This document shows, piece after piece, positions 21,519 through 51,526 of a stretch of DNA of 64,000 bases (the first letter of the stretch is position 1; each line of letters starts with the position of its first letter). The notes beneath the pieces are model-generated. The model made no database searches and was not told where the DNA came from. It saw only the letters and a list, made by a program, of their open reading frames with translations. Position numbers and translations under genes: made by a program. This DNA comes from an uncultured Methanosarcinaceae archaeon. Lineage in GTDB: Archaea > Halobacteriota > Methanosarcinia > Methanosarcinales > Methanosarcinaceae. Where the stretch lies: contig CAWHXP010000010.1 of the NCBI GenBank assembly GCA_963833425.1, positions 68,841 to 132,840 on the forward strand, read 5' to 3'.

Positions 21519-22890
21519 TTATAATTGTAGCTTAAGAATTTCAGAGCTGTCATCGGTATCCTCAACCCACTTGCAGCTATCTTCCCAGTTGAACACTCCA
21601 ACAGCGAACTCTATTCCGCTCATTTTCACGTATTCCCGGATTTTGTTCAGCGCATGATCTACCATACCACCAGCTGTAAGGATAAGGCAACGCTTTCCAC
21701 AAAGAGCCATTAGTATAGATTTGTCTATAACTCCTGAGGTGACATCCAGGTGGATTCCATCCTGCTCTGCGAGATTTTTACTTTTATTGCCCATTCTACC
21801 TACAAAAACCATTTTCCCTTCTTCCAAAAGTTGTCGTACCTCTCCCAGAGAATAATTAACAGTATCATAAACCAAAATTCCTCCGGCTTTAATCCCTTTA
21901 CGCTTTACTCCAACAATGGCTTTTCCATCGGGATGGAAATGGAGAACTGTAGCGTTAATGGCTTCGTAAGGAGATTGAGTTGCATATTCTCCATACATAA
22001 TTCCAAGGTTTAGACTATCTCCTTCTTTGACTTTCGGAGGAACATCTACCCACATCAGGTCCAGAATTTTTAGGGTACTTACTATTTCTGGTATAGTTTT
22101 TGGGGAGTGTTTGCCGTATGCAAGCCCTCTTCTTTCGAGTTCATGATACATTTCAAGAGTAGTTGGTTGGCAGATGTCTACTTTTTGAAGAAACTCCTGC
22201 TTTTTGAAGACCTCTACAGCAGGTGTTCCCTGGCCTATAAGTTTGCTGCTGGACATGATGTACACATAGTCAGATCAGCGGTACGCCAGATCCACATCAT
22301 GAGTGGAGATGATGATAGTGGTTCCGAATTGGTTAAATTCGTCAATCAGATCCATTATTTCGTCCGCACCCATCGGATCAAGATTCGAGAGAGGTTCATC
22401 CAAAATGATTACTTCGGGTTCCATTGCCATAATCCCAGCAATTGCAACTCTTTTTTTCTGGCCTCCGCTGAGATGATGTGGAGGCTTGTCCTGCAAGTGG
22501 GAAAGCCCAACTTGCTCAAGAGAACTCCTGTACGCAGACATCGACCCTTTCTTTTGAATAACCCAAGTTTGCAGGCCCAAAAGCTACATCCTGGTACACA
22601 GTTGGAGCAAATATCTGGTCATCAGAATTTTGGAAAAGTATTCCTATGGATTTTCGGATTTCTCTGAGGGATTTTGAATCATATTTAACTGAAAATCCAT
22701 GAAAATGAACCTCACCTTCATCAGGTTTGAAGGTTCCATTCAGAAGTAGAAACAGTGTGGACTTTCCTGAACCATTTGGCCCTACAAAAGCGACCTTTTT
22801 CCCTTTTTTGATTTCAATATTCAGACCCTGGCAAGCTACAGTCCCGTCCGGATAGGTGTATTTAAGGTTCTTAGTCTCAAGAATGATCAT
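21519..22890 (-). pseudogene. cbiO: CbiO ATPase with C-terminal extension, broken by a frameshift (~22530) and an in-frame TGA (22275-22277)
   Basis: GPNGSGKS in 22516-22890, LSGGQKK/LDEP in 22275-22580, then [12 protein letters not shown] continuing in frame into 21519-22265. Confidence 0.85.
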
Positions 22891-22901
22891 AACCTGTTAC
22901 C

Positions 22902-23684
22902 TCAAAAAATGGATATATTTTTTGTAAAATAAAAGAGTGAAAGAGTCGAAATGAAATAAACAGAAGTTAAAAGCAATTCTATCGACTTTATAGGCTTGTG
23001 AACTTCGAAAATCGTCATTTTCCCGTTATAACATCTGGAATTCATGGCAATGAAGAGCTTCTCTCCCTGTTCCCACGATCTTATAAAAAGTGTGCTTGTA
23101 AGCATGCCAATAGAATTAATGGAACGCCTGAAATTCGAGTATCCTAATCTTATTGTCTGAGCATACATTATGGAAATGGCAATTTCGAGAAAGACGAAGA
23201 TATAACGATAAATTAGCATGGTAAGTTCTATCAGAGTATCTGGTAGTCCGGAAGTTTTGAAAACAGCAAAGAGTTCGATCATAGGGGTTGTCAGTGCAAG
23301 GAAGTAAAGGCAACACATCCCACTTATAGCCCTTGACAAGACCAGAAGTGCAAGCTCAAGTCCATCTGCCTTTATTGAAAGAGGATATCCTATAAGTTTG
23401 AAGGATAATAGGTCCTGTCCCGAGCCTGAAAAAAAAGCAATTATAAGAACACCAACGGCAGCAAAGCTCATAGGAGCTAGCAAAAGTTTGAAATAGAGTA
23501 TAGGAGACACCCTCCCAAAAACAATTATCGTAAAACTCATACAGAGGGCTATGAATACAGGAGTGATAGGGGATGTACATGAAACTCCTATAATTAATCC
23601 AAAGAAAGCTATTGCTAGTTTCAACCAGTTGTTTCGGTGCCTTAGAGGACTCATAAGAGCATGATCGTCAAGAATATTGGTCAT
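22902..23684 (-). CDS. cbiQ: Cobalt ECF T component CbiQ
   Basis: Membrane protein with LIYRYIF, QTIRLGY, AMNSRCY motifs. Confidence 0.9.
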   Translation of the reverse strand: MTNILDDHALMSPLRHRNNWLKLAIAFFGLIIGVSCTSPITPVFIALCMSFTIIVFGRVSPILYFKLLLAPMSFAAVGVLIIAFFSGSGQDLLSFKLIGYPLSIKADGLELALLVLSRAISGMCCLYFLALTTPMIELFAVFKTSGLPDTLIELTMLIYRYIFVFLEIAISIMYAQTIRLGYSNFRRSINSIGMLTSTLFIRSWEQGEKLFIAMNSRCYNGKMTIFEVHKPIKSIELLLTSVYFISTLSLFYFTKNISIF

Positions 23685-23881
23685 TGGGGCACCTGCTAGA
23701 TAAGTAGATCGAAACTAAAGAATTCTTCGTTATTTCAAGTGAGTTCTCGCCAACTAAAAATTAAAGAGGATTTCGATAAATCTCTGATTTCAATGAATTA
23801 ATTATATGCTCTTTACAAACAATCAAGCAAATTTGAGGGTTTTTTAGAACCCTCTAAAGGTTAAAAATTAAGGATTACCTA

Positions 23882-24226
23882 TCATGTTTGGATTTTTTCG
23901 TCCCTTTGCAGTTTTTTATCCTTTTGAATACCGAAATCGCTTTCAAAACTGTTTTTTGCTCTGTAATACCCGAGGAAGTAACCGATAATTATTGCACCGG
24001 TAGCTGCCTGAAGGCCAAAAAGCAGGCTTTCTATTTCATCACTCGGAGGTTTCCAGATAGGTTTTGCAATGGGTTTGTAAGCCCCATCTGTAATTTGATC
24101 AATAACACCTTCGGGTTTGTCATCAGCTCCACCATATTCGGCATGTGTAGTAGAAGACATATAAAAGAACTGAGCTGCAAAAATCAGAATTATAGCAATC
24201 ACGATAAATTCAAGTTTCCTGCTCAT
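23882..24226 (-). CDS. cbiN: Cobalt transport protein CbiN
   Basis: [32 protein letters not shown]. Confidence 0.92.
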
Positions 24227-24942
24227 GCAGCAAGCCCCCTGATTTTGCGAACTAAAGATTCGGTCAATACGTTCATTTCAACAAGGATATCACTCTTGAC
24301 CTCAATCACGTACTTGAAGAGTAGGGCACTAACTGCGCCTTCGATGATTGCTAGGGGTATCTGAGTAATTGCGAAGACTTCAAGAAATTTGCTGAATGAA
24401 CTGAAGAAACCCACATAATTTAAGATTCCTCCTGCAGGAAATGCCAAAGCAAGTTGTGTAGAAGTTGTAATATAAGTAGCCCAGTCGCCGAAAGCTGCAG
24501 CCAGAAAGACAATAAAATAAAAGTTGATTTTGGCTTTCATTCCGGCCTTATAAATTAGGTATGACACCACCGGACCCACGATGCCCATGGAGAATACATT
24601 TGCTCCAAGGGTCGTAAGCCCTCCATGGGCTAGGAAGAGAGCTTGGAAGATTAGTACAATAGTCCCAAGAACTGCAGTAATCGCAGGCCCAAAAATGATT
24701 GCTCCTACCCCTGTTCCTGTAGGGTGAGAACAGCTTCCTGTAACCGAGGGCATTTTTAGGGAGGAAAGCACGAATATAAATGCACCTGCGACCGCAAGGA
24801 TAGGTAATATCTCGCGTTTTTTGTTCACTAATTTATTCATTTTGTAAACACCATATGCGATCACTGGTATTGATACTGCAAACCATACTATACACCAAAA
24901 CACCGGTAAAAAGCCTTCCATTATATGCATAAAGATCACCAT
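24223..24942 (-). CDS. cbiM: Cobalt ECF S component CbiM (native start MHIMEG)
   Basis: [28 protein letters not shown]. Confidence 0.95.
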
Positions 24943-25232: not shown

Positions 25233-26088
25233 GGTTCCGTTGCAAAAAATCCTTTCTAATGATACAATAGAATAAAAAGAAAATCAAAGATAGTAATATG
25301 CTATTTAATTCCTTTAAATGGAAACATTATGAAGGGGAAATCATCCTATTAAATGTAAGATGGTACTTAAAATATGCATTAAGTTATAGAAATTTAAAAG
25401 AAATGATGGCAGAAAGGGGAGTAAAAGTAGACCATACAACAATCATGAGATGGGTACATCAATATTCCCCTGAAATAGAAAAGAAGATAAGAAGACATTT
25501 AAGGCTAACAAACTATTCGTGGAGAGTTGATGAAACCTATATCAAAGTAAAAGGTAAATGGGACTATTTTTACCGAGCAGTTGACTCAAATGGGGATACA
25601 ATTGATTTCATGTTAAGTTCAAAACGAGATAGAAAAGCAGCAAAGAGATTCTTTAAGAAAGCTTTAAGTTCTAATCATAATCAAATTCCAAGAGAAACAA
25701 CCGTTGATAAGAATCCAGCTTATCCACCTGCTATAGATGAACTGAAAAATGATAAAATATTACATAAAAACGTAGGAATTAGACAAATCAAGTATTTGAA
25801 TAACATTATAGAACAAGATCATAGATCTATAAAGCGAATCGTTAATTCAATGTTAGGATTTCAGTCTTTTCGATCTGCTAATAAGACCTTAAAAGGAATT
25901 GAAGCTATGAATATGATTAAAAAAAGACAAGTAAATGATCTAAATTACTCTGTTCTTAATGAAGTCAAATACATTAATCAATTGTTTGGTATAGTTTTAT
26001 AATGTTAGTACATTTTCCTTGAATATTTTGATTTTTATTTATTACTTATAGATTTACATGCTTATTTTGAAGTTTTTGCAACGGAACC
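25233..26088 (+). mobile_element. Complete IS6-family element (856 bp)
   Basis: Perfect 16-bp TIR GGTTCCGTTGCAAAAA / TTTTTGCAACGGAACC around the transposase. Confidence 0.95.
25298..26002 (+). CDS. IS6-family DDE transposase
   Basis: WRVDETYIKVKGKW, TVDK, YLNNIIEQDHR. Confidence 0.95.
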   Translation: MLFNSFKWKHYEGEIILLNVRWYLKYALSYRNLKEMMAERGVKVDHTTIMRWVHQYSPEIEKKIRRHLRLTNYSWRVDETYIKVKGKWDYFYRAVDSNGDTIDFMLSSKRDRKAAKRFFKKALSSNHNQIPRETTVDKNPAYPPAIDELKNDKILHKNVGIRQIKYLNNIIEQDHRSIKRIVNSMLGFQSFRSANKTLKGIEAMNMIKKRQVNDLNYSVLNEVKYINQLFGIVL

Positions 26089-26115
26089 AAAATATGTTAA
26101 GTTAAACTGAAAATA

Positions 26116-26565
26116 TTAATCAACTGATAACTCATTACTTTCTGCAACCAGATCAAATTTCTCTAGAATTTGTTTTCTAATTTTGTCTGCGTCCTTGACG
26201 CTTATCTCGACATTTTGATTCAGGTTTTCTGCAACAACATTAGTTTTGCTATATACTCTCCGTCCAAATTCTTCAGGGAACCTTCTCTCCAAAATCCACA
26301 TGGAAACCTGGCAATTTCCAACTGCAGCTGCATTATTTAACCGTTCAAGAAGAACCTTTGCGGCATCAGCATTACATTTTTCAATATGTTGATAGAATTC
26401 AAAGTACTTTCCTGATGTTGAATCTCTTCCCAGTTTCATCCAATCATTGAACGCCTGATAAGTCAGACCTGCTGAATTAGCAGCGAGAGCATAAGTTAAT
26501 CCGAGAGATACACCATCACCGATTTTCTGTTGTACTTCGGGAGTGAGCTTTGTAGGACGTGGCAT
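26116..26565 (-). CDS. Terminase small subunit-like HTH protein
   Basis: MPRPTKLTPE N-terminus, HTH ending FNDWMK, WILERRFPEEFGRR motif typical of phage TerS-like proteins. Confidence 0.65.
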   Translation of the reverse strand: MPRPTKLTPEVQQKIGDGVSLGLTYALAANSAGLTYQAFNDWMKLGRDSTSGKYFEFYQHIEKCNADAAKVLLERLNNAAAVGNCQVSMWILERRFPEEFGRRVYSKTNVVAENLNQNVEISVKDADKIRKQILEKFDLVAESNELSVD

Positions 26566-26975
26566 GATAACACAGTTTTTTATTTTTTAGTAATAATATT
26601 AGTGAATCTTGTATTAAATGTTTCTTTAGTTCTTTTATGCATTAAGGCGGGGTTTTGACTCGATTAATCAACAATGGGCCATTCTCAGACGTTTTTTGAC
26701 TAGACTAATCATCTTCTAAGGGACTCCTAATAAACGTCACTCTAGTGGCCCCAGATTAAGCCATTTTTTCGACAGAACCAAGCCCCCATAAATCTATGCA
26801 CTGAGAACTTGGGATAGGTTCTCGAGATTTTTCATATATTTTTATTACTTTAAAATAATAAAAACTAAATAATTTATTTACTAGTGTGGAAAGACTTATG
26901 GCTGTAATTAAACAAAAAAATTGAATGTTAGAAGTGATTGTCAATTAGTCAACTTTCCAGTCAAATATCTACGAA

Positions 26976-27374
26976 TTACCCATGATTAATTTCGGTCTCA
27001 ATCTGCAGAAGCCAAACTTTTGCTTCTGTATTACCATCCTTATCGGTTATAGTGCAACCCAATTCATGAATAACACCAAGTTGTTGATCAAACTCAGCTA
27101 TTTGCTCTTGCATTGTTTTTTCGTGTGATGTGAAATATCTATGTTTACCTGTTTTGTCAAAAAATACCGGAGTACACAAAAAAGAACGTTTCTCGATTGA
27201 TGGGTCACAATCTTCAATAAGTGCACTTGCGACTTTCCAAAGCTGTATCGTATCTTCTTCCCATTTACACGGACGATCTTTGAGATAGTCTTCGTTTAAT
27301 TCCGGCATTATTTGCAATGCAAATTCTGGACTAATTTCTTGTCTGTAGCTATCAATGAAACTCATTTTAATCAC
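26976..27374 (-). CDS. Hypothetical protein of the integrated element
   Basis: ORF coupled to 27367-27600; GGTGA RBS. Confidence 0.6.
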   Translation of the reverse strand: MIKMSFIDSYRQEISPEFALQIMPELNEDYLKDRPCKWEEDTIQLWKVASALIEDCDPSIEKRSFLCTPVFFDKTGKHRYFTSHEKTMQEQIAEFDQQLGVIHELGCTITDKDGNTEAKVWLLQIETEINHG

Positions 27375-27600
27375 CTTTCACTTTCTGCCAACCGTAACTG
27401 TCGCCTTCAATTTCTATTTTCTTTACTTTACCTTCATTTACAAGCTTATAAAGCATGTTTTTAGCTGTGGACCGGCTGCATCCTACTAAACTCATAACAG
27501 TTGCAGTAGACTTGATGCTATCAATTGATAGAGCACTTAGGAACATATCTTCTGTAAACTTCTGTTGGAATCTTGTTTTACCACCTTTCATATTATCCAA
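27367..27600 (-). CDS. Small winged-HTH protein
   Basis: STATVMSLVGCSRSTAKNMLYKLVNEGKVKK. Confidence 0.7.
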   Translation of the reverse strand: MDNMKGGKTRFQQKFTEDMFLSALSIDSIKSTATVMSLVGCSRSTAKNMLYKLVNEGKVKKIEIEGDSYGWQKVKGD

Positions 27601-27850
27601 TCTACCAGCCAGTCAATTTTCAAAAAACTACGCTACTATATACTATTTATTAGTATTTATACTTTATTATCACTTAGTAATGGTAATGGTTATTGATAAC
27701 CTTTTGATGCTTGAATAGCTGGTTATGTAGAAAATTTTGACGGAAGAAATTTAAACGGGGGAATTTTAAAAATAGAACAGACAAAAATGTGATATTAAGG
27801 CTAACCCCGTTCGTTATGTATATTTCATATTATAAGTATGTCTTCAGCTA

Positions 27851-28152
27851 TTATATTCCCATTTATTCCCAATTATTCCCGTTATTTTCCCATTATATTC
27901 CCATTAAAAATAATATAAAAACAATAACAAGGTAATTAAAATTCATAAAAAAAGGGAGTTATGTTCCCAAAATTAAAAAATGATATATGATTTTTTAAAG
28001 TAATACCCGAAATATTAGAATGTCAAAAAGTGTAATTTTCTATTTTTTTCTTGCATTTTCGGGTTTTTGGGAACAAAATGTCAGATGATTGCGTTTCGAT
28101 GGGAATAAAATGGGAATATTGTGAAAATAAATGGGAATATTTGGGGAATAAA
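27851..28152. other. Putative replication origin: ATTCCC iterons, AT-rich spacer, inverted GGGAAT iterons
   Basis: ~10-bp periodic (T)TATTCCC x5 at 27851-27905 and inverted copies at 28099-28152, directly downstream of rep. Confidence 0.7.
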
Positions 28153-28177
28153 CGAATCAATTGCCTTTGTACCCTGA

Positions 28178-30413
28178 TCAGGCATCCTTCAAGAAAATAA
28201 ACTCTTTATCAAATAATGACCAGAAATTAAACTTTGAATTATCTATACTGAATTTGAAAGCCCTTCTTCCACTACTGCTTATCAAGATATCTCCTTCCCT
28301 CTTGTAGTCTGTATCAGTTTCTTCTTCCATTTTTAACTCTTTGATCTTGTCAAGAAGCCCACCTGCTTCCCGTTCTTTCCTTCCAAATAGGGCACGTTTA
28401 ACAGCTTGATAATTAATGCCTGTGTGGCTTGATATATCATTAATTGTGCATTTCGCTTTACTCGCTATATATTGGATTATCTGCCTTTCGTTTTCGTTCA
28501 TTTTTGTTACAGTGTTCTCTTTTTGAGCTTCGAATAACCTTTTTGCTCTTTTTAAGTCTTCAATCTCAGCTAGTAGATATCCGTCGTCGTCCAAAGTTCT
28601 CTGCTTCCATTTAAAGACAGCAAAACCCCGGACCATATCAAGGAACATTGGGAATATACGTGAATTACTGGTATCCTGCAGGTCTATCTTGTCCACAAAG
28701 GGTATTTTAATCTTGAATAAATTCTGTTTAAGTTCTCCATACATTCTTCTGCAGATAAGTACTTCAATGTTTATTTCCTGCCCGTTCCCACCCCTTGCAG
28801 CTTCGTGTTTCTGCGCATCAAATATCCTTTTTTTCTGCTCGGGACTGTTATCTGCATCAAAGGTGAGTTGACGATTGAGTAATTGATCAGATACGAAGCT
28901 TTCAACACTTGTTAAGTACCAATTTATCCGGGGTGGGATTACCAAGGATATTTGTTTTTGATCTTTCACAGTTGTATAGCAAGTTTCTTCCTGAAAGTTC
29001 GTTGTAGCCTGTTTTATGACTTCTTCAAATGCAGGATCAGGATCCTTATCGTCCGAAAAAATGATGACTCCAGGAGCTAAATTCATGTAGTAAGCAGCCT
29101 TCGCACTTAATCTGGTTACCCGTTTCCATTTTTTAGGAATTAAATGCAAATGTGTTTTTATTCCATGTGACTTCCCTGAGCCCGAAGTGCCATTTACGGA
29201 TATTTGTAAACCTGCTGTATTAAGGCAACACTGACAGGCTATTGATACGCATATTGCTTCTTGTGTATCCCGGTCCCCTACATGCTTTTTTGCTATTGTG
29301 TTCAGTATATAATCTATAGGGTCACCTTCCCTTAAGATCCTGTCTGCTTCTTCCTCTGCCTGCTGAACAAGTTCTGGTCTAAGGTCTATTTCATCATAGT
29401 CTATATTTAGGGGATTCTCTTTTTGAGCTTCTGGCTCAGATTTTTTCTGGCTACCTATATGGTGTGTCTGCCCCCTGAAAGTGCAATTATCACATTTTGA
29501 GTTAAGGGCATTATCAAGTATGACGCTTCCTAACTCTCTCTGGATAGTTTCACATTTCCAAGGCTCTTTTATTTTGCCTCCGTCTGGCCCCAGTTCAGAA
29601 TCACATTGTGACCGGCTGTAATCATCTCTAAAAAGGTATTTACAGGCAAGGTGCAAAACTTCATAGTCTGCACCATTCGCTTTCAGATCTGCCATCAGCG
29701 CCAGAGTTAACTGTCTGCCTGTGCTGGTATGCAATTCTGTGATATCAGGGCTTGCTTGATGGGTCTTGAATTTTTCACGTAGACATGGCTTGCATTTTTG
29801 CAAAATCACTTTTAACTTATTATTGGTTCCAAATAGGGCTGTAAGCCTGTTAATGAGTTTTTCAGGCATTTTTGGTATATCTTTCAAGTGTCCTGATTTC
29901 CCTGTTAAAGGAGTAAATCTGCCCGTTTTTATGCTTGCTTGGTGGTAGGACCGCATTGTTACCATCCGTTAAAATCTCTATGCCTAAATCGTGATGCTTT
30001 TGAGCCTTCAGAGCTTCTGTGTATTTAAAGAAGATATGTCCCCGATTCTCTGTCCTCTTAGACATAAGTCAATTATCCATGGCCAATCCGGCTGTGAGTT
30101 CACTCCATATGGCAGGGTTCCAGTCGTCCACATCGATTATGGTAATACCGGATCTTTTCCCGCATTGCAAGCCAATGTTCGCGTTATCAAAGTAAGAGCT
30201 CCTACCAGGTCCCCAATATTTTTTTATTTCTGCTTCCGTTAGGACACTTTCTCTTTCCTGCCAGGCTTTTATCAAAACTCCTTTACCTGGGCTCTGTTCT
30301 TTCCCTGTTTTAGGATTTGTCTCAGGTACATTAGGATTTAACAAAGGATGCACTATGAATCCTAATCTCGTGTAATTTAATGCAGCTTTAAGAATTGCAG
30401 TTTCATAACTCAT
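28178..30413 (-). pseudogene. Primase-polymerase/helicase Rep fusion interrupted by a TGA (30069-30071) and a frameshift (~29880)
   Basis: Prim-Pol motifs NIGLQCG..IIDVD, RGHIFFKY, VLPPSKH; Cys cluster; P-loop GTSGSGKS; C-terminal wHTH. Confidence 0.8.
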
Positions 30414-30646
30414 CTTTTCAGACTTTCTTCAAGCTGTAGATTCGTAACCGATGAAATCGAAAAGGACTGGTCAAACGCTCGTTTTAAATCTATGAGATAT
30501 CTAGGTCTTTGTCTCCTGCGCTCAGAATAAACCGTATCAAGAGAATCAAAATTCATTCTATACTCCCCTATCCTGCTGCTCTTCCAGATATTTAGGCTCT
30601 TTGTGGAGTCCATAGAGATGACGAGTCGTAGGTCTCTGCCTTCCAC
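30410..30646 (-). CDS. Hypothetical protein of the integrated element
   Basis: Overlaps rep start (ATGA coupling); start uncertain. Confidence 0.45.
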   Translation of the reverse strand: MEGRDLRLVISMDSTKSLNIWKSSRIGEYRMNFDSLDTVYSERRRQRPRYLIDLKRAFDQSFSISSVTNLQLEESLKR

Positions 30647-30670
30647 ATTCAGTAGTGGTGAGACTTAACA

Positions 30671-30946
30671 TCAGAACCCCTCTCCCAAACGATAAGTTCT
30701 TACAATATCTGCTCTTGAGCAATCATCAGGCTCTTCTGGAATCCGCCACGGGTTATAAGTATCGGTATGTATAGAACAACTCTGTCTATGCCAATAATAA
30801 AACAAATTATTAATTTGACTAAGCACCTTGTCTCTGTGTCCATCTGTGGATGTGACGAGAGAATTGTAAGTAATTTGAAATTTGGTACTATCAAAATTGT
30901 GATAAAAAACACTAATATCGTTTTGTTTATACGCAGAATATTTCAT
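30671..30946 (-). CDS. Hypothetical protein of the integrated element
   Basis: GGGGA RBS; co-oriented with rep. Confidence 0.45.
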   Translation of the reverse strand: MKYSAYKQNDISVFYHNFDSTKFQITYNSLVTSTDGHRDKVLSQINNLFYYWHRQSCSIHTDTYNPWRIPEEPDDCSRADIVRTYRLGEGF

Positions 30947-31137
30947 GGGTTTTATTCCCCCTTGAATTCGAAGAGAACAACAGAACCCTTAGCATCAGAA
31001 CCATCATTTGAATAAGATATTATTATTAACTATGAAAGTATAATTAATAATAGTTCAGTCATTGGAGATGACGATCTGAATTGCCTAGGACAGGGCTCAA
31101 TCTGTCCTGGGCTCAAATCTCTCAATTTTTGTTACCC

Positions 31138-31542
31138 TTAATCATTTTCTCTAGGTCGTTCACCGGAAATCTTCAATGCATTATCTCCAAGCATCTCGAT
31201 TTTCACAGAATCCCCTTCTTGGAAAATATTATGCACTGTCTTACCCTCGAGTAACACTTTGAGAATGTCTAAGGATTCAAATTCTTCTGCACTTTTAGTG
31301 ACCAAATCTGATAATGTAGCCACTTTTAGTGTTTTAGAACTAAGTGCTGCAAACATTTTAGGCTCCCGAAGAACGTTTATTTGAGATAAATAATTGTCTA
31401 ATATTTTATACAATGATATTAGTACTTCATCTATATGCCTAAAACTGGCATCAGTTATTTCAAGCATATATTCGTCAGATAACGAATTCAAATTTTCTTT
31501 ACACCGAATAGCTAAATCTTTTTTATAATCCATAGTAATCAC
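31138..31542 (-). CDS. Hypothetical protein of the integrated element
   Basis: 134-aa ORF; AGGTGA RBS before ATG. Confidence 0.6.
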   Translation of the reverse strand: MITMDYKKDLAIRCKENLNSLSDEYMLEITDASFRHIDEVLISLYKILDNYLSQINVLREPKMFAALSSKTLKVATLSDLVTKSAEEFESLDILKVLLEGKTVHNIFQEGDSVKIEMLGDNALKISGERPREND

Positions 31543-31728
31543 CTTACAAAATAATCCATATTTTCGAATTTGTTGAATTAGATGTCCTTAGGCTGTACAT
31601 GCAACCGTTAGTTACAGAGCTAAAAAAGGAAATTATATTTAGCATGTAGACTATGTTATTCATGATGCGTAACTTCTCATTTCTGGTTCGATCTGTTCTT
31701 GTGGGTCACTCGCGATGAAAGTAGGCGT

Positions 31729-31926
31729 CTATATGGGTGTTTTGCAAACTTTCCGACTGCTTGGCCGCTGCGGGATTTGCGAAACGCCTTTAGCAACACT
31801 TTTAATTAATATAGCTTGCGCCTGTTCATACACATTTCCGCACTTAATTCTATAGTCAATTAATTCATGGAATTCTGTATAGAATTTTTTAAACATTCCT
31901 ATCGTGTCTGGTTTTAGATCGTTCAT
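31729..31926 (-). CDS. Small hypothetical protein
   Basis: GGGAG RBS; co-oriented. Confidence 0.5.
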   Translation of the reverse strand: MNDLKPDTIGMFKKFYTEFHELIDYRIKCGNVYEQAQAILIKSVAKGVSQIPQRPSSRKVCKTPI

Positions 31927-31992
31927 TTACTTTTATCTCCCAGATGCATTACATTTTTTTGAACATGCAACTATCGAACTCTCTTGTGCAGT

Positions 31993-32172
31993 TTAATAGA
32001 AGATATTTTCATGGCAAGTGTCATCTGCTATGATTCTCAGTTGATTTTCGCTGTCCATCTCTATCACAACAGTTTTCACGTCTGCATCCATTGATTTCAT
32101 CCACGGCATAGGGAGCGAAATCATATAACTCCCACCTTGTTTAATTACAGTTCTTTTTCCGAATCTAAACAT
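31993..32172 (-). CDS. AbrB/MazE-like swapped-hairpin DNA-binding protein, 59 aa (absent from the ORF track)
   Basis: Manual translation MFRFGKRTVIKQGGSYMISLPMPWMKSMDADVKTVVIEMDSENQLRII..; AGGTGA RBS. Confidence 0.75.
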   Translation of the reverse strand: MFRFGKRTVIKQGGSYMISLPMPWMKSMDADVKTVVIEMDSENQLRIIADDTCHENIFY

Positions 32173-32322
32173 GATTTCACCTTAATAGGATAGAGTATCG
32201 ATTTTATTTGTGGACTTTCACGAATTGCTATCCTAATAAAAGCTTAATAGATCTTAAACATTAAAACAATTTTTATCTGCAACAATTAATAAATTGCTGA
32301 TAATCAGCAGAATATCAACAAT

Positions 32323-33144
32323 TTGCAGACTATTAACTCTCATTCGCAGATATCTTTCAATATAAATTTAAATTATCCATATAATATGCGGAAAAAAAGT
32401 AACAAAGAACGGATTTTAGATGGTTTGTTAGAATCTTCTAAAACGACTGGAGAATTAGCAACTGAGCTAGGCTATGTTGATCCAGATGGGACTCCACGTT
32501 ATAAGATAATTGGACGTGATTTAGACACACTCGAAGAAAATGGGTGCATTGAAAGTAAGAAGGTAAATTTAAGAAAAGGTAGACAAGACTCAACATCATA
32601 TTCGATTGTCTCCAGTATTCAGAACTTATCTCAAATACTGAAACAATATCCAGACTTAACATCAAAAATGCAAAGAAAAGATTCTATTTCTGAAAATATA
32701 TTTCGTGAGCATTTGAATTTAATTTATGGTTTAATTGATATGGAAGCTTTGAAAAGTGGAGCATTGGAAAGTGCAATTAAAAATCATTATATTATGGCTG
32801 TAAGAAATTCCTTACTTAGCTCATATCCAACTTATGATTCATTGATGAAGAATAGGGTGGAACATAAAGAAGTTACACTTGTTGAAAAAATAGAAATATT
32901 ATTTAAGGAAAAATTACAGTTATCCCCTGAATTTTTCAGACTTTTCCTGACCACTGATAAAAATGAATTAATAAATAATATTATAAAACTTATTGGCAAT
33001 TTGGATAATAGGATATACATAACGGATCTGAAATATGATCAGGACCCTGACAACTGGGTAGCAATGTATGGAACAACCTTTAATATCGAAAAAATTTTCA
33101 GGGAATGTGGTTGCATAGATATAATTAAAGAACAAAATAATTAA
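32323..33144 (+). CDS. Winged-HTH regulator, divergent from the AbrB-like gene (likely start ATG 32386; the frame continues past stops to ~33435)
   Basis: KTTGELATELGY..IIGRDLDTLEENGCIE wHTH; TATA-like box ~25 bp upstream of ATG. Confidence 0.7.
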   Translation: MQTINSHSQISFNINLNYPYNMRKKSNKERILDGLLESSKTTGELATELGYVDPDGTPRYKIIGRDLDTLEENGCIESKKVNLRKGRQDSTSYSIVSSIQNLSQILKQYPDLTSKMQRKDSISENIFREHLNLIYGLIDMEALKSGALESAIKNHYIMAVRNSLLSSYPTYDSLMKNRVEHKEVTLVEKIEILFKEKLQLSPEFFRLFLTTDKNELINNIIKLIGNLDNRIYITDLKYDQDPDNWVAMYGTTFNIEKIFRECGCIDIIKEQNN

Positions 33145-33665
33145 GAAAGGACAGAATCCATACTAGCACAAAATAAAATATCAGATGCAGAAATTCTGAA
33201 ATTAAGAAGAGAAATAATAAAATACTTAAATCAAATCAAAAAAGAAATATCAAATGCAGAAATTCAGCAGTTGGCATAATCACTTTTTGAACTTCGTGAA
33301 TTAAGAATAGCAATGATGAGCTATTTAATACATACAAAAAACGAAAAATCAGATACAGAAGCTCAAAAATTAAAAAAGTATGAAATGGATTTAATTTTCC
33401 CACCATATTTTCAACATCTGATAACTTATGACTAAATTAATTCTCATTAAAAATTATAAACTTAAAGAGACAATAGTATTTGAATACAGTTAACAGAACA
33501 AATTACTAAATATTATCTCATCTACCCGACTATTCAATATTCTATTGCAAAAATGCGGTTAGTTTTGAATAAGCAATGTTTTATCTTATATGGCTAGCTT
33601 TGTTTTATATATTAATACATATATGCAATAACCTGAACTAAAAAGTACAATTTTACTCTTATATT

Positions 33666-34883
33666 TTAAGTTTGTTTGTTCAGGAGTTTTTTGACTTCGA
33701 TTGCTATTTTTTCCAAAACCTTTGGGTCAACACTGGAAACTTCTAAGAATGATAAATCTAGTTTTTCTTTATCTTTTTCAAGTTTTAGAGCGGTTTCTTG
33801 ATCGAGAACCAGTGCGCATTGGCTACAAAATTTGTCGTCTGATTTTAATACATTATTACACCGTGGGCATCTTTTAAGTGTAACGTGTCTTTTGTCTTCA
33901 GTTTTGAGCCCGTATTTCTCAAAAATACTATTGTTAATTTCGTGATCCGTGAAATTTGCATAAATTTTGAACATTTGAGTACTGCCCCGACTCCAGCCCG
34001 CTCTGTGCTTAATTTCTTGCTCATTAAGTCCATCTAAAATCCAGTTTGTTATAGCCATATGTCGTAGCAAATGTGGATGTATACTTTTCTTGATGCCTAC
34101 TTTTTCGGCTGTAGTCTTTATCATTTTTCGGATAGCTTTATAACTCACAGCTTCTTTATTTTTGTTAAGGGTAATCCATAAGGGAGCTTCTGGATCTTCG
34201 TGAAAAGGATGAACTGCAAGCCACTGATTCAAATACCCCGCGCTCCAAGTGAGTGGTAGCCCCTTTGCAGGTGTTGTCTTGTTAGCCCCTGTTTTTGAAA
34301 GATAAATCATAGCTCCATATTGATTAAACTCTACATTTTTAACCCTGCAGGACATCATAGCCCCTACTCTCATTCCGCTATCTGCAAGAACAGCGATAAT
34401 AGCTTTATCCCTTGGATGTCTACAGCCTTCAAGGAGTCGGGTGAACTCATCTTTGGTCAGTATGTCCGAAGGTTGCACAGGGCTTTCAATTGTTTTTAGC
34501 TTCAGATCCATAATCCATTTAGGCTGGTTACCACTTGTGGACCATCTGAAGAATTTTTTGATCAATTTTTTATAATTTCTGATAGTGCCTGGAGAGAATT
34601 TCTTTTCATCTTCACAAAAAATAAGCAACCTATCAAAAGTATTCTGGTCCAGCTTGTCCAAGGTCTCATTGAATCCTAGTTCTTGAAGTTGCTCGACCAT
34701 CCTGGTTGCATAATACAAGTACCACGTGATTGTTGTTTTTGCTGCTCCTTCCCGTCGAAGAGCAATTGAAAAATTTTCAATCAACGCTTTGTTTTCTTCC
34801 CCAATATCTGCATTTTTCAATTTATGTTGTGCGCGTAAATAATCCGCATCAATACAATGAACATCATCAACAGATTTAGTCAT
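33666..34883 (-). CDS. Tyrosine recombinase/integrase with C-terminal zinc ribbon
   Basis: SGMRVG (R), HPHLLRH (HxxR), AGW, IYA (Y); CPRC..CSQC. Confidence 0.95.
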   Translation of the reverse strand: MTKSVDDVHCIDADYLRAQHKLKNADIGEENKALIENFSIALRREGAAKTTITWYLYYATRMVEQLQELGFNETLDKLDQNTFDRLLIFCEDEKKFSPGTIRNYKKLIKKFFRWSTSGNQPKWIMDLKLKTIESPVQPSDILTKDEFTRLLEGCRHPRDKAIIAVLADSGMRVGAMMSCRVKNVEFNQYGAMIYLSKTGANKTTPAKGLPLTWSAGYLNQWLAVHPFHEDPEAPLWITLNKNKEAVSYKAIRKMIKTTAEKVGIKKSIHPHLLRHMAITNWILDGLNEQEIKHRAGWSRGSTQMFKIYANFTDHEINNSIFEKYGLKTEDKRHVTLKRCPRCNNVLKSDDKFCSQCALVLDQETALKLEKDKEKLDLSFLEVSSVDPKVLEKIAIEVKKLLNKQT

Positions 34884-35684
34884 GTATATATCTAATAGAA
34901 GTTAAGGACTATAAACTTTTAGTATATAGACCTAAAAGGTAACTAAAATACGAAATAATAGATTTAAAGTTAAAACCAATTTCCTTATTTTTAGATAGCA
35001 GTGTTTTCAGACAAAACATTATTATTTTTTAAATTTTACGTTTGATTTTAAAAGTTTCTTTCCTTCGTGGGACAAAAAGCAACATTTTGGTTCTTAGTTA
35101 CTACATATTTTTTATTAAAAACGATGTATTATTCATTGAATCAATGCAAAAATGTCCCTATAATTTTGGCTTAAACTAAGAAATACATAGATTTAATCGT
35201 AAAAACTGTGTATACTAAAGTTGTCCATATTTAAAGCTTAATCCAGGAAAATAGCATTCTTAACGATCCAGTCTGATTGGGAAAAGTTGATTTAAACATA
35301 TGACAAATAGTATAATGAGTTAATAAATATTTTAAAAAATTATTAAATATAAGGAACTCTTATCCTGTATATATATATTTCTAGGTATTATATACTCATT
35401 GAATGATAATATATTGACGATACAATCCAAAATCTAGTGATTTTTATATTTCATCACGGTGCTTTGGTGCTAAGTAAACATGTGCTGTGAAATAAAGAGA
35501 GTTTTGATAAACTTCAGATTTTTCAATAGTTGTATGTAGACCAGTTATTAAGCCTGTGATAAAATATGGTGATTTATTGAAATTTCAGAACTTACACATT
35601 TAACAACGATTTTTTGCTGCTAAACTTCGTAAGTCCTAAACTGATTTACATTGTTCAAATTTAATAAAATAGGAGTGGAAATAA

Positions 35685-35876
35685 ATGTTGAAACTATCTT
35701 CTAGCGGAATGAAGAAAGGAATGTCTATTTTGCTGGCAGTTTTTTTTGTAGTGTCTTTGGCAGCTGTGGCAGCTAGTGCACATCACAGTGGTCATGGGCA
35801 TGGTGGCGGGGATGGCTGTGGCGGATGCGGCAGCGGGGATGGCTGTGGCGGATGCGGCGGATGCGGTGGCTGTTGA
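35685..35876 (+). CDS. Small secreted His/Cys/Gly-rich peptide (shared-leader family)
   Basis: AGGAG RBS; same leader; mature part HHSGHGHGGGDGCGGCGSGDGCGGCGGCGGC. Confidence 0.75.
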   Translation: MLKLSSSGMKKGMSILLAVFFVVSLAAVAASAHHSGHGHGGGDGCGGCGSGDGCGGCGGCGGC

Positions 35877-36799
35877 TAATCAAAGCGTATTTGTCATCAT
35901 AAATTAATTTATTTTTTTATTTTTTTATTTAATTGAATTTTTTCCAATGCTAATTTTTTTTAATTCATTATCAAGAATATACCATTAGGACAAAACCAAG
36001 TGGGATCCTAAAGTACAATAATCTAATTTTCGTTGAATCAAGAGCAAATGATGCTCTCCCTAGTTTACCTGTAAAATTAAAAATATCGAGCTGAAGTATC
36101 TGCAAATGATCTCCAGCGTATTGGGGGTAATTTATTTAGCCAAGCAATACTCCTGTATACCTTGATTTTATAGTACTTTCTAAATGGGTGATTACTAGAT
36201 TCACATAACTTAACATTGCTTAATTAATTCATTTTTGCAGAAATTACAATTTATTTAAATCGAACCCCAAATAGCTTGTTTCGGGACTAAAATTTTTCAG
36301 AAAACCAGTATTATAACTAACTGAGTTTATACTTTAAGCTACCTTTATTTTTGGCAGTGTACTTAAAATTCTGTAAAAATAATTGTTCTATGTCCTTTGC
36401 TTACATCACAAAACCGGACTTCTTGATCTCGTTTATATATAGCTTTTATAGCAAAAACTGTGCATAATCCAGAGATTAACATTCAAAAATTAACCCAGGA
36501 TAACAGAAGGTTAAATATTAAGTTACTTCCTGAAAATTCAAAAATAAAAAAGCCCTAGTGGAAGTTTTGGTAATTAACATCAAATTTTTCCATATTTTTT
36601 ATGCGCTTGTTCAGCGATCAGAATATCAAAATGTACACTTATTTCCATTTGTATTTATACTACGAAAAATGGATTCAAGCTATAGGAAAGCATATTCAAA
36701 AGGGCTCAATTACTTGCTTTAGCATCTGGATTTGTGGCAGGGAAGCATATTGGATATATTATAAGAAACTGGGTTTGATATTGTGCCTATTTGAAAGAG

Positions 36800-37110
36800 A
36801 GTAGCTGGAAGGAAAACGGAGTGAAACCCTTCCATGACACTTGGTATTTTGTTTTAAAAATCTGAAACTTTCTACCTATTTTCACTAATTCCACCACCAC
36901 AGGGAATTCCAGCACAATAGGTTCGATGAATAGATTTCAGACCTTCTTATTTTTCTAGAGCTTTTGAATAGACATTTGAATGTATGACTAACTCATATTT
37001 ATTATTTTTTTTTTATTTTTTTCATATTTTATGATATTAAACTTAATAATAATATTACTTACCAAATTTCCATCAAAAATAATAATGAAGAATTTAAATT
37101 GAGAATGTAC
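36800..37110. repeat. ~300-bp segment repeated at ~40100-40410
   Basis: Shared gaaacccttc..ggtattt, aggttcgatgaata.atttcaga, atattacttacca.attt.catcaaaaata. Confidence 0.75.
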
Positions 37111-37506
37111 ATAGGTTTACACACTAAAACTGTGTATAAATAAGAATAAAATAACAAAAATTTAATTAGTATAACTACTACTTCAACATCCTGCTTTTTT
37201 GAAGTGAAAGAAAACGATAAAGAGCTCATCAGATATAACAGAACTTCAGCTAAACCATCAAAGAAACATATCTAAATTAAATGCAAAATTTGAAGAATAG
37301 CAATATTTTATGATAATGGTTGTTTTCTAGTAAAATTTGTAATTTGTTGATAACCTTGTGATGTTATCTAGAAATAATAAAAAATAAAATTAATATTAAA
37401 TTTTTGTCAATTTTAAAATGTTTTATACCTTGCTTATCAAAATCCTATACAATGACTAAGGGTAACATTATTCACACTGTTTTAATCACGTACTGGGAGA
37501 AATTAT

Positions 37507-37836
37507 CTATGTTGACGCTTTTTTTGGAAATATAGCTAGTCCCGCATCTGGACCTAGATCCGGAGCCGCAGGAGCTGGAGCTACAGGTGTTGAATTTTGA
37601 ATAGTGTATGGCATTCCAGATGTAAAATTGAATCCAGGGCAGAGCCAATTATCACCACCCACCCATCTACAACCAGTACTATAGCCCCATCCGGGACCCC
37701 AGCCATAGCCGCCCCATCCGCGGCCCCAGCCACCATAGTGTGCACTAGCTGCCACTGATGTCACCGATATTACAAAAAGGACTGCTAGCAAAATAGCAAG
37801 GACCTTTTTCATTTTACTAGATGATTGTTTTAACAT
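37507..37836 (-). CDS. Small secreted Gly/Trp-rich peptide, paralog of 20398-20724
   Basis: Near-identical sequence; AGGTGA RBS. Confidence 0.78.
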   Translation of the reverse strand: MLKQSSSKMKKVLAILLAVLFVISVTSVAASAHYGGWGRGWGGYGWGPGWGYSTGCRWVGGDNWLCPGFNFTSGMPYTIQNSTPVAPAPAAPDLGPDAGLAIFPKKAST

Positions 37837-38713
37837 TTACTTCACCTTTTATATTTTGTTCAAATTAATAATATGTTGAAATACAGAAAAATACAACTTG
37901 AAAGATCGGTTGATTTTACTGCAACTGCTAATGTTTTTGTATTTTTTTTGAATTGACATATAAATTATGACAACTTTATATTTAATATTTTCTTTAATCT
38001 TTTTTATATTTTATAATATAATACTAAAAAATTGTAATACTCATCTCAATTTAAATCAATTTTTTTTACTGTGATATATGGTAATTAGTTCAAATGTTCC
38101 GTAAGTGAAATATTTGCAATGCTTTTTTACTCTATATGGAAGTCAGAAAATTCGGGGACTTCAGCACAAAACACGTATATGAATTGAGTTTAAGCCAGTA
38201 CATCATTAGTTGCTCTTGAGAATTGCAGTCTATTGGTATCTATGGGTATCTATGGGTTCTGTCTTCTTTGTGGGAAGAATTCAAAGTAGGAATACGGATT
38301 TTGCTTTAATTATGAATAAAATTAAAGTTTGTCCAAAAAAGTAATATAAATTTATGTATATGTAATACTCAACAATATGGATTTATAAGAACACTCTATG
38401 CCTTATGCAGTTGAACTAAAAATAAAATTAAAGATTTAACTGTTTAAAATAAAAATTGAACAGACCGAGTATATTGAACTCAATTCTGTTTCCAAAGTGT
38501 TTTAGTTTTACATATTTTAGAAACAATGAATGACACATTTATTTAAATATTTCAGGGAGCAGAGTTGTCTTCGAAGATACTTTAATAAATACTTGCCTAA
38601 GCATGTTCGTATTCTTCTCATAAGGCTAATTTTTAATGTTATGAAAAATTACTCAATCAACATGACCATTTAATCTTAAAACCATAAGAAATTAGCTAGG
38701 GGAAGAGAGACAA

Positions 38714-39439
38714 ATGCACTTTCCAGATGGATATTAGGACCACATACATATATTGCTTTTTGGATTATTATGGTCCCGATATGGTATTATGCAGGAAAGA
38801 AGCTGACCGCAGAGCTCAAGTCCAGACAGGTTCCACTGCTGGCACTATCAGCTGCATTTTCATTCGTAATAATGATGTTCAATGTACCTATTCCAGGCGG
38901 CAGTACAGGCCATGCAGTCGGTGGTGGAATTATCGCCTTAGTCATAGGCCCCTGGGCATCAATTATAGCTATATCTGTAACTTTGGTGTTACAAGCAATG
39001 ATTTTTGGTGACGGTGGAATAACAGCCATAGCCGCTAATTGCTTCAATATGGGAGTGATGATACCCTTTGTCGCTTACTACGCTTATAAGTTGATTAGTG
39101 GTAATTCAGTGATTACATCCCGTATGAGAGTTATTGCTGCGGCTATTGCTGGGTGGCTTTCTCTGACCATGGCATCTCTTTGTGCGGGATTTGAATTAGG
39201 AATACAGCCAATTTTAGAGCACACAGCTGACGGAGTCCCACTTTATATGCCCATATACCTGGAATGTAACTATTCCGGCCATGGCACTTGAGCACGCTTT
39301 TGCATTTAGTATTCTTGAAGCACTGGTCACAGCAATTATTTTTGCGTATATCCGGAAAACAGATGCATCTATATTTTATGGAGAGAAATCTGAAGCGGAA
39401 TTCAACAGAACCGAAATAATGAGTGGAGTCACAACCTAA
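38714..39439 (+). pseudogene. nikM: Nickel ECF S component NikM with two frameshifts
   Basis: ATG CAC TTT CCA GAT GGA TAT (MHFPDGY), then -1 nt; GSTGHAVGG and FGDGGITA; +1 nt near 39250. Confidence 0.85.
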
Positions 39440-39448
39440 GGTGAGAAT

Positions 39449-39772
39449 ATGGATAAAATGGTAAGAAACCTATCTATTGGCCTGATATTTTTGATAGTTT
39501 TTGCGCCTTTAGGCCTACTTGCAGCAGGCACAGCATATGGTGAATGGGCGCCCGATGAGCTTAAGGATAAAATTGGATTTGTGCCACATGGATTGGAAGA
39601 GCTATTTGACTTATGGCATGCTCCAATGCATGAGTATAATATCCCCGGTGCCCCTTCCTTCCAAGATTCAAAGCTCATATCTTCAGCAGGATATATCCTG
39701 TCCGCAGTAATTGGAGTAGTCGTTGGTGGTAGTCTTTTATATTTCATAGGAAAGAAGGCTGCCAAAAACTAA
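39449..39772 (+). CDS. NikN/PDGLE-domain membrane protein
   Basis: GTAYGEW..GFVPHGLE..APMHEY; two TM helices; follows nikM. Confidence 0.8.
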   Translation: MDKMVRNLSIGLIFLIVFAPLGLLAAGTAYGEWAPDELKDKIGFVPHGLEELFDLWHAPMHEYNIPGAPSFQDSKLISSAGYILSAVIGVVVGGSLLYFIGKKAAKN

Positions 39773-40506: not shown

Positions 40507-40571
40507 GGTTCCGTTGCAAAAAATTCTTTCTAATGATACACTAGAATAAAAAGAAAACCAAAGATAGTAAT
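40507..40571 (+). mobile_element. Solo IS6 left end
   Basis: Matches 25233-25297 and stops just before the transposase ATG. Confidence 0.85.
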
Positions 40572-40903: not shown

Positions 40904-43117
<2,214 letters not shown>

Positions 43118-48870: not shown

Positions 48871-49249
48871 GGTTCCGTTGCAAAAATAATATTTCTGCAA
48901 TTTGATACTAGAAATCTTACTTTTGTGTACCATTTTGCTGGATTAAGTTTTGAATATAAAAAGCTCTCGTATGCACAGATTTTCTAACAAAAACTGTGCA
49001 TTCATGCTAGTCGGATAAATTATGTTGTCTTAAAAAATTCACTTAAATTATTTAAAAATGTCTGGTCTGCCTTTTTTAGTGATATATAAAGTTAGTCATC
49101 TAATTTTGTAATAGAAAGTGTTTTAACTTTTGAAAGTTGATCAATTGTTAATTTGCTAGCTCCTTTAAGTTTAGCTCCTTCAAGATTAGTCATCTTCAAA
49201 TTTAGGCGGCTAGACTCTCCATGATTAAAAGATTTTTTGCAACGGAACC
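48871..49249. mobile_element. IS6-TIR-bounded mini-element carrying a pentapeptide-gene fragment and a 31-bp site; extra solo TIR at 49452-49467
   Basis: GGTTCCGTTGCAAAAA / TTTTTGCAACGGAACC; TNLEGAKLKGASKLTIDQLSKVKTL inside. Confidence 0.75.
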
Positions 49250-51346: not shown

Positions 51347-51526
51347 GGTTCCGTTGCAAATAATTCAAAAAAATATGTAAATCTATAAGTAATTAATAAA
51401 AATTAAAATATTCAAGGAAAATGTATTAACATTATAAAACTATACCAAACAATTGATTAATGTATTTGATTTTTATTTATTACTAATAGATTCACATGCT
51501 TATTCTAAAGTTTTTGCAACGGAACC
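51347..51526. mobile_element. IS6-derived MITE made of two right ends
   Basis: Both halves match the right end of 25233-26088 in opposite orientations. Confidence 0.85.

Follow-up and report, generated by a model that had tools for sequence, protein, structure and literature searches.

The DNA analysed here is a 64,000-nucleotide (nt) stretch of the genome of an uncultured Methanosarcinaceae archaeon, referred to throughout as the window. Between positions 25233 and 34941 it contains a dead copy of a small integrative element, one member of a large family of such elements in Methanosarcina-type archaea that may be satellites of tailed archaeal viruses. Read from the integrase side, positions 26116-34883 hold a tyrosine integrase gene, a divergent pair of regulators, four small open reading frames (ORFs) and a PrimPol-type gene, followed toward the far end by inverted sets of iterons, a small helix-turn-helix (HTH) gene, a conserved ORF (orf132) and, on the minus strand, a gene for a protein resembling the small subunit of viral terminases (TerS). 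This order had been given in a preliminary description of the locus, and the ORF listing and family scans found every part at the place assigned to it. As the same description had held, none of the 14 window ORFs scanned against Pfam and PHROGs matched a capsid, portal, terminase large subunit (TerL) or tail family.

The TerS homologue and its relatives

The gene at 26116-26565 (minus strand) is intact and encodes a protein of 149 amino acids (aa), residues 1-130 of which align with positions 9-143 of the 166-position profile of PHROG 4102, annotated as terminase small subunit (E = 1.6e-23); the protein gave no Pfam match at E ≤ 0.1. When an AlphaFold (AF2) model built on 36 relatives (pLDDT 81) was searched with Foldseek, ranks 1-6 were all the Sf6 TerS, gp1 (best E = 0.042, probability 0.99). 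VIA-align, which is independent of Foldseek, likewise paired the model with Sf6 gp1 (3hef_A, Z 8.8, rmsd 6.5, 106 of 123 residues), the next match having a Z of 5.0. The model agrees with solved TerS structures in having an HTH at the N-terminus and a helical core for oligomerization. Since a Z of 8.8 is middling for a helical protein, the modelled fold supports the TerS assignment without proving it. Profile and fold together uphold the label of terminase-small-subunit-like gene that the preliminary description had proposed.

The genomic setting of relatives points in the same direction. ORF8 of PhiF3, a cultured Methanobacterium virus (MN737622.1), belongs to the same family and is of similar size (26% identity over 89% of the query, tblastn E = 1e-8); its 432-nt gene ends 15 nt before the annotated TerL gene, with portal, protease and capsid genes next, whereas the window gene stands alone. 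A scan of IMG/VR with the window TerS itself as query found no relative. Among the five IMG/VR loci that carry relatives of this family, TerL lies directly downstream of TerS in three (L055, L056 and L057) and 2.3 kb downstream in a fourth (L054), and the fifth (L053) is a 4.1-kb contig without TerL in which terS is preceded by a PolA-like fragment. A 37%-identical TerS directly upstream of TerL was found on contig C342 (9.4 kb), which was binned with G056, a genome of the same genus; here the likeness extends into the C-terminal region.

At E ≤ 0.001 the TerS family comprises 5,679 representatives. Among 15 intact copies of terS, the median dN/dS was 0.20 (range 0.12-0.41) over 96 of 105 pairs, the nine pairs with dS outside 0.05-2.5 having been dropped, which indicates that terS is kept by selection within the family. 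No TerL was found beside terS in the window element or anywhere in the window's own genome. On the strength of profile, fold and TerL-adjacent relatives, we conclude that the product of 26116-26565 is a genuine TerS homologue in an orphan context, for which TerS function is predicted.

Distribution of the element family

The window's own genome (G000; 4.07 Mb in 21 contigs, 80% complete) gave 39 TerS-like matches. The same genome had no match to PF03237 (Terminase_6N), PF05065 (HK97 capsid), PF04860 (portal) or the TerL families phrog_979 and phrog_2; in the TerL-family searches the G056 genome scored as positive control. A profile search across the genus found TerS in 20 of 59 genomes, with high numbers in six (29 in G000, 47 in G019, 11 in G055, 39 in G064, 26 in G065 and 51 in G067), three matches in G070 and one in each of 13 further genomes. 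Terminase_6N was present in 11 of the 59 genomes and in none of the six TerS-rich ones, and TerS of this family lay within 1.5 kb at only one of the 12 TerL loci in the genus.

Full copies of the window type of element are found four times in its genome, namely in the window, at C5:151060-160186, on C9 from position 40319 and on C20 up to position 40647, together with many remnants. Across the family, the span from integrase to terS is about 5 to 12 kb, and at least five types of replication gene occur: PrimPol (G000), PolA (contigs C18 and C21), primase plus PolA (C8), a DUF927 primase-helicase (G024) and an AEP primase (G014). The C18/C21 and C8 types have integrases of another clade, and the C8 primase is 791 aa long, yet their plan is unchanged, with integrase, oppositely oriented regulator, AbrB-like gene and replication genes in turn and terS last. 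Two of these elements, G000:C18:918-7629 (L020) and G000:C21:19596-26634 (L021), carry a family-A DNA polymerase (PF00476, E = 8.3e-28) and seem better preserved than the window copy; the copy at L027:1901-10210 likewise appears intact. In each of four further genomes of the genus, a single distant TerS (32-37% identity) lies beside an integrase and/or a primase, in small stretches that are not proviruses.

In PHROG scans, no ORF besides TerS matched a head, portal, TerL or tail family, whether at six loci of G000 (0 of 115 ORFs) or at four loci of other genomes (0 of 54). At 12 further loci in other Methanosarcinaceae genomes, none of the 75 ORFs downstream of terS matched a phage structural Pfam family, and housekeeping genes (ThiC, HisF-type, Mch, CTP synthase) lay within about 1-3 kb past terS. 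The preliminary description had named continuation into TerL, portal or capsid genes as the observation that would overturn its reading; homologous elements at the loci scanned do not run on into such genes, and from the gene content of these loci we conclude that the element is not a truncated provirus.

Short related contigs were also present in public sequencing runs from peat, soil and freshwater sediment. Twelve runs share at most 0.19 of the sampled words, with no RNA run among them, and assembly from four public runs yielded short contigs only, none with a joint connecting the two element ends.

Ends of the element

On the terS side the element is interrupted by an insertion sequence (IS) of the IS6 family at 25233-26088 (plus strand), which is not an original part of it. 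Its transposase ORF lies at 25298-26002 (PF13610, DDE_Tnp_IS240, E = 6.4e-48), it is bounded by perfect 16-nt inverted repeats (25233-25248 and 26073-26088), and it ends 27 nt from the terS stop codon. The 8-mers flanking it differ, so that there is no target duplication. The same IS occupies the same position in the sister copy on C5, and the sequence beyond it is unrelated in the two copies; taken with the lack of a target duplication, this suggests that the IS was probably already aboard as a passenger when the two copies diverged, and deletions mediated by the IS may later have taken the ends of both.

What was lost can be gauged from related elements. In these, a conserved spacer of about 95 nt separates the terS stop codon from the 3′ end of a small ORF that runs convergently and encodes a coiled-coil protein, 111-137 aa long except in one copy with internal repeats (236 aa). 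The window retains the first 27 nt of this spacer (26089-26115, minus strand) in an alignment of 10 loci (A2), and homology in the other nine continues about 120-250 nt beyond the terS stop. By tblastn, the coiled-coil ORF directly follows terS at 7 of 12 loci in other genomes, and it is present also at G019:C77 and two further loci of G000. We conclude from this comparison that IS6 removed the rest of the spacer, the coiled-coil ORF and the element end, along with any attachment site there, and no structural module. The caveat in the preliminary description that IS6 might have deleted structural genes was thus not borne out, relatives having the spacer, the coiled-coil ORF and then host genes at this place.

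IS6 is very active in this genome, where about 46 full-size and about 47 pairs of inverted repeats of miniature inverted-repeat transposable element (MITE) size were counted. An IS6-derived MITE (L050:10747-10896) forms the terS-side junction of the element at locus L050, whose host flank has orthologues in 59 of 59 genomes; there, homology begins exactly at the MITE, and the next 1.5 kb are unrelated elsewhere. Within the window, IS6-derived MITEs with IS6 inverted repeats at their ends lie at 48871-49249, 51347-51526 and 53888-54038, most being about 150-180 nt long. Many of the 59 genomes of the genus have copies as well, and one such copy lies on the virus-like contig mentioned above (G056:C342:170-318).

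The integrase-side end was placed at 34906-34941 by alignment of the four full copies, whose homology begins some 58 nt before the integrase ATG. The end is sharp, with blastn end points at 34932-34947. Just inside it, at 34906-34932, is an inverted repeat of 8 nt, its halves 11 nt apart, that occurs in the genome only at the integrase ends of the four full copies. The palindromic half-sites GGWCTATA / TATAGWCC were considered as the element's ends and rejected, as the pair is found only inside the integrase end of these copies and never at terS ends. Multi-copy families make up the flank on this side (34945-38700); in five relatives they give 58-86 matches per genome. Among them are small signal-peptide, Gly/Cys-rich ORFs at 35685-35876 (plus strand) and 37507-37836 (minus strand), and copies of the flank families are often near other elements, which may be chance. 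No tRNA gene was found within the window, and no Rfam family reached its gathering score in 24000-46000.

Replication gene and putative origin

The replication gene (28178-30413, minus strand) appears to have encoded a PrimPol domain, a P-loop region and a C-terminal winged HTH (wHTH), and is now in three pieces (30069-30413, 29862-30065 and 28178-29965). The first two pieces match the Prim-Pol family PF09250 above cut-off (E = 5.3e-7 and 4.8e-5, respectively). The third is an ORF of 595 aa with an HTH_24 match at residues 489-526 that falls just under the cut-off (E = 2e-4). Its identity as a primase-helicase, as proposed in the preliminary description, holds for the PrimPol part; the middle part had no helicase match in Pfam or PHROGs, and the helicase label draws on a Walker-A-like GSGKS motif seen by eye and on its nearest Atlas clusters, DUF927/PF27228 (score 0.94, language-model neighbours). 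A search of PDB sequences with TerS, the 595-aa ORF and the 273-aa regulator ORF described below returned nothing of note.

Alignment of the four copies across the PrimPol/NTPase junction revealed an in-frame TGA at 30069-30071 where the three other copies read TGG, and one extra A in the run at 29882-29884, again in the window copy only, which shifts the frame. Programmed read-through or frameshifting was considered as an explanation and rejected: the other three copies have TGG and lack the extra A, and their replication genes are broken at other places. The lesions are ordinary inactivating mutations and not recoding. The integrase, terS and small ORFs of the window copy are still open. Judged from its broken replication gene and from the replacement of the element end by IS6, the window copy is nevertheless dead, and the two copy-specific mutations vindicate the earlier description of a decaying element with a broken rep gene.

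Directly downstream of the replication gene is a putative replication origin (27850-28152), in which five direct 11-nt iterons (27850-27906) and four inverted iterons (28101-28152) lie on either side of about 190 nt of AT-rich sequence. Tandem Repeats Finder (TRF) found the 11-nt unit in 5.4 copies at 27850-27906 (score 79). For the word GGGAATAT, the window has 8 occurrences where 3.1 would be expected; 2 of 100 shuffles reached 8, and 4 of the 8 occurrences are within the iteron region. The iteron origin of the preliminary description is therefore confirmed as regards its repeats, by TRF and by the inverted second set, and we infer origin function for the region.

Integrase, regulators and small genes

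The tyrosine integrase (33666-34883, minus strand; 405 aa) is intact and has a C-terminal zinc ribbon. It matches PF00589 (E = 7.8e-21) and PHROG 1 (E = 8.1e-29), with further matches to the N-terminal SAM-like domain PF13495, to a Zn-ribbon and, below cut-off, to NCBIfam XerA_Arch (E = 3.2e-34).

A putative regulator of 273 aa (32323-33144, plus strand) is transcribed divergently from the leftward operon and has homologues at the same place in the C5, C9 and C20 copies. It had been described as a wHTH repressor; the divergent ORF is indeed present, and the wHTH label goes back to a reading by eye, with no match for the protein in Pfam, PHROGs, NCBIfam or PDB sequences. Its counterpart in a second element family has a weak LexA_DNA_bind match (E = 9.3e-4). 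The first gene of the leftward operon (31993-32172, minus strand) encodes an AbrB/MazE-like protein of 59 aa with the SpoVT-AbrB fold. Here the proposed AbrB-like gene divergent from the regulator was recovered, with a PF04014 match (E = 1.6e-3) under the Pfam cut-off; the counterpart in the second element family matches PF04014 above cut-off (E = 2.3e-6). The stretch that separates the 273-aa regulator gene from the 3′ end of the integrase gene contains a 34-nt direct repeat in triplicate (33170-33371; 76-100% alike, spacing 69 and 99 nt), the copies of which could be protein-binding sites of the arm or operator type.

Four small conserved ORFs follow on the minus strand, of 65 aa (31729-31926), 134 aa (31138-31542), 91 aa (30671-30946) and 78 aa (30410-30646), and they are kept in identical order in the sister copies on C5, C9 and C20. 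None has a Pfam match at E ≤ 0.1 or a PADLOC match, and the sole PHROG match is a weak one of the 134-aa ORF to phrog_8836, a family of unknown function (E = 0.0055). Of the 11 proteins scanned with PADLOC, 10 had no match; the exception was the coiled-coil ORF at sister locus C10b, whose matches were of a generic coiled-coil kind.

Beyond the origin, a 77-aa HTH protein (27367-27600, minus strand) is encoded by a gene that overlaps the start of orf132 and is kept together with it in other copies; its matches to PF22168 (E = 2.1e-5) and to TrmB/IclR HTH families are all below cut-off. The product of orf132 (26976-27374, minus strand) is a conserved protein of the terS-proximal module that has no family match. 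It has 70 homologues, none of which is named beyond "hypothetical protein" or carries a Pfam domain, and it also precedes terS in several elements whose replicons are of other types. Its AF2 model (pLDDT 75.5) had a best PDB match of Z 3.3, no BFVD match at E ≤ 0.001 and no usable Atlas match. Between orf132 and terS is a 62-aa ORF (26756-26944, minus strand; family F18) without a Pfam match, members of which are present at the same place in G000:C5 and G000:C10:35779.

Discussion

Each element of this family combines four components: a tyrosine integrase, divergent regulators, a plasmid- or virus-type replicon and a module ending in terS, which comprises the HTH gene, orf132 and terS, with the convergent coiled-coil ORF in related copies. 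The Staphylococcus aureus pathogenicity islands (SaPIs) and other phage-inducible chromosomal islands (PICIs) of bacteria begin with an integrase and divergent regulators, continue with a primase-type replication gene and an origin, and have terS near the far end. The present elements follow the same order, and they likewise lack TerL, portal, capsid and tail genes. In gene content, they thus have the integrase, regulators, replicon with origin and terS of a satellite, and no structural or TerL genes. The preliminary description had called the element a PICI/SaPI-like satellite. Its architecture, its terS and the lack of structural genes agree with that name; att repeats were not found, and no gene for capsid size or of the Ppi type was recognized. 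Our best reading is that the family consists of satellites of tailed archaeal viruses, a proposition we regard as evenly poised.

In such a satellite, an intact element would be excised by its own integrase under the control of the divergent regulator pair and would use its own primase-type protein to replicate from the iteron origin. TerS would then bind element DNA, possibly at the conserved spacer just past terS, and recruit the TerL and capsids of an infecting tailed virus, whereby element DNA would be packaged and spread. Proposed in full, namely that the Methanosarcina of peat and soil harbour a large and hitherto undescribed family of TerS satellites, the first of PICI-like kind in Archaea, built from a portable module and at least five replicons, reaching tens of copies in a genome and served by virulent helpers that do not reside in the host genome, the hypothesis is tentative and somewhat short of an even prospect. 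No TerS-bearing satellite of archaea in general or of Methanosarcina in particular was found in the literature searched, which consisted mostly of non-subscription papers without their supplements.

A number of observations weigh against the satellite reading. With tens of copies and remnants in a genome, the elements are unlike the PICIs known so far, and transposon-like spread fits such numbers as well. No homologue of a gene for capsid size or helper interference was recognized, orf132 having no fold match. No att repeats were found at the seven elements compared, where no direct repeat of 13 nt or more is common to the regions upstream of the integrase and downstream of terS, and no empty site was recovered with either the L050 flank, compared with 59 genus genomes, or the right flank of the window. 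In G014, terS adjoins the integrase instead of lying at the far end, an exception to the order that would fit circular permutation. The TerS-rich genomes are incomplete (80% complete for G000, 73-92% for the other five), which leaves the absence of TerL unproven, and TerL families beyond the three tested could have escaped detection. Finally, the same-genus contig with adjacent TerS and TerL (G056:C342, 9.4 kb) is a binned one, so that its link to the host is indirect.

Several of these points would suit a helper-free integrative plasmid or transposon-like element, the main alternative, which is possible and, in our estimate, rather unlikely. Here the TerS-like HTH protein would serve the element's own recombination directionality, replication initiation or partition, and spread would be by vesicles, cell contact or intragenomic hopping. 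In favour of such an element are the plasmid-type replicons, the iteron origin and the lack of a detectable TerL in any TerS-rich genome; moreover, the very high copy number (26-51 TerS matches in five genomes) together with the lack of long att repeats suggests a low-specificity recombinase. Some sources name the protein "transposase", and one relative has a weak match to HTH_Tnp_1 (E = 3.2e-3). The likeness to viral TerS nevertheless spans nearly the whole protein in both profile and fold (profile positions 9-143 of 166; 106 of 123 Sf6 gp1 residues), a C-terminal motif common to the TerL-adjacent TerS of G056 is retained, and virus-borne relatives adjoin TerL in PhiF3, in three of five IMG/VR loci and in G056:C342. 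No protein with a TerS fold is known to act as an excisionase.

We consider it improbable that the element is a complete small virus that needs no helper and has its virion genes among the unannotated ORFs of 65, 134, 91, 78 and 132 aa and the coiled-coil ORF. TerS is known to work only with the TerL ATPase and portal, neither of which was found, and inspection by eye revealed no ORFs for membrane proteins of the pleolipovirus or fusellovirus kind. The small ORFs vary between element types that have terS in common, and the orf132 model fits no capsid fold. Some room for this alternative is left by the ORFs themselves, most of which have no family match in the libraries searched, since archaeal viruses often have unrecognizable capsid proteins, and by the 4.1-kb IMG/VR contig L053, in which a PolA-like fragment is paired with a TerS of this family. 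Descent from a tailed provirus that lost its structural genes through IS6 is hardly credible, for although IS6-family elements cause adjacent deletions and this one abuts terS without a target duplication, relatives without that IS show the same end (terS, short conserved spacer, small convergent ORF and host genes), G000 has no TerL, portal or capsid family match, and the same order recurs across five replicon types.

If the elements are satellites, they differ from those described to date in several respects. In SaPIs and PICIs, the satellite-encoded TerS redirects packaging by the helper, according to the accessible text of one report (PMC9618062). Compared with these islands, the present elements have an archaeal host, are smaller (about 5-12 kb), exchange their replicons, number as many as about 50 in a genome with remnants included, have neither a recognizable capsid-size (cpm/sid) or Ppi-like gene nor att repeats that could be found, and are not known to be induced or to have a helper. 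VEIMEs (virion-encapsidated integrative mobile elements) of marine bacteria are small, integrase-bearing elements, some of which encode primase/helicases as well as homologues of TerS, the latter being most similar to the TerS of co-occurring phages (PMC9618062). As far as the same source goes, they differ from the archaeal elements in being bacterial and in having been found inside virus particles (PMC9618062). PICMIs (phage-inducible chromosomal minimalist islands) are minimal satellites of integrase, regulator and primase with virulent helpers, and the portion of the report available indicates that they have no terS, whereas terS defines the present elements (PMC10803314). Since the helpers of PICMIs are virulent, a host genome need not contain the helper of its satellite (PMC10803314).

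Among archaeal elements, plasmids of the pRN1 type and the fusellovirus satellites pSSVx/pSSVi have a replication protein composed of PrimPol, NTPase/helicase and wHTH, as outlined in the sections of the source at hand (PMC4158269). When the window gene was compared with this plan, the PrimPol domain and a C-terminal HTH_24 were found, with the by-eye P-loop and the DUF927/PF27228 Atlas neighbours in the middle. pSSVx and pSSVi are a precedent for archaeal elements without capsid genes that ride on a helper virus (PMC4158269), but their helpers are spindle-shaped viruses without terminase, and no TerS is involved in the account consulted (PMC4158269). The SRCEs of haloarchaea and nanohaloarchaea resemble the present elements in having replication modules derived from plasmids and in depending on helper viruses, and differ in carrying the capsid protein and/or packaging ATPase of tailless icosahedral viruses, to go by the available text (bioRxiv 10.1101/2025.02.15.638363). 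NMV2S, of an Asgard archaeon, likewise has plasmid-derived replication and helper dependence and is linked to a tailed virus, in the part of the preprint that could be accessed (bioRxiv 10.64898/2026.08.12.739948). The parts of these two preprints that were available make no mention of TerS (bioRxiv 10.1101/2025.02.15.638363; 10.64898/2026.08.12.739948). In the literature searched, to the extent of its accessible text, the archaeal satellites proposed thus far use routes other than the hijacking of packaging by TerS.

Satellites that carry TerS have been described mainly in bacteria so far, and an archaeal candidate is what would be new here if the satellite reading is true. Satellites that hijack terminases shape phage ecology and gene transfer in bacteria. 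On the satellite reading, hijacking of the packaging motor by a satellite TerS would be common to both prokaryotic domains, and the elements would be markers of virulent tailed viruses, as yet unknown, that infect Methanosarcina, an important source of methane in peat. They would also represent natural small DNAs that replicate themselves, integrate and are perhaps packaged into virions, with possible use as a genetic tool. Whether or not they are satellites, the family makes up a sizeable share of the mobile DNA in six genomes of the genus (11-51 TerS matches each), and in it a viral packaging gene is kept under selection outside any virus genome.

Additional observations

A simple scan of G000 (80% complete) for periodic repeats detected no CRISPR array; its two candidates were repeats within protein-coding sequence. 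The contig of G056 with adjacent TerS and TerL (L070, G056:C342:1-9428) is virus-like, encodes a primase of 636 aa in addition to the two terminase subunits, and is a candidate relative of the putative helper.

Sets of cobalt/ECF-type transporter genes flank the element in the ORF list, at 21519-24942 and 38770-39772. Both include CbiM-like ORFs (24223-24942, minus strand, and 38770-39291, plus strand), and the ATPase gene of the left set seems to be split (22275-22580 and 22516-22890). Further to the right, a catalase-peroxidase gene (40907-43117, plus strand; 736 aa, PF00141, E = 1.8e-71) lies in an island with a GC content of ~0.58 relative to ~0.35 for the genome, as though it had been acquired recently from a high-GC organism. 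Just upstream of this gene, at 40507-40522, is a solo terminal inverted repeat of IS6.

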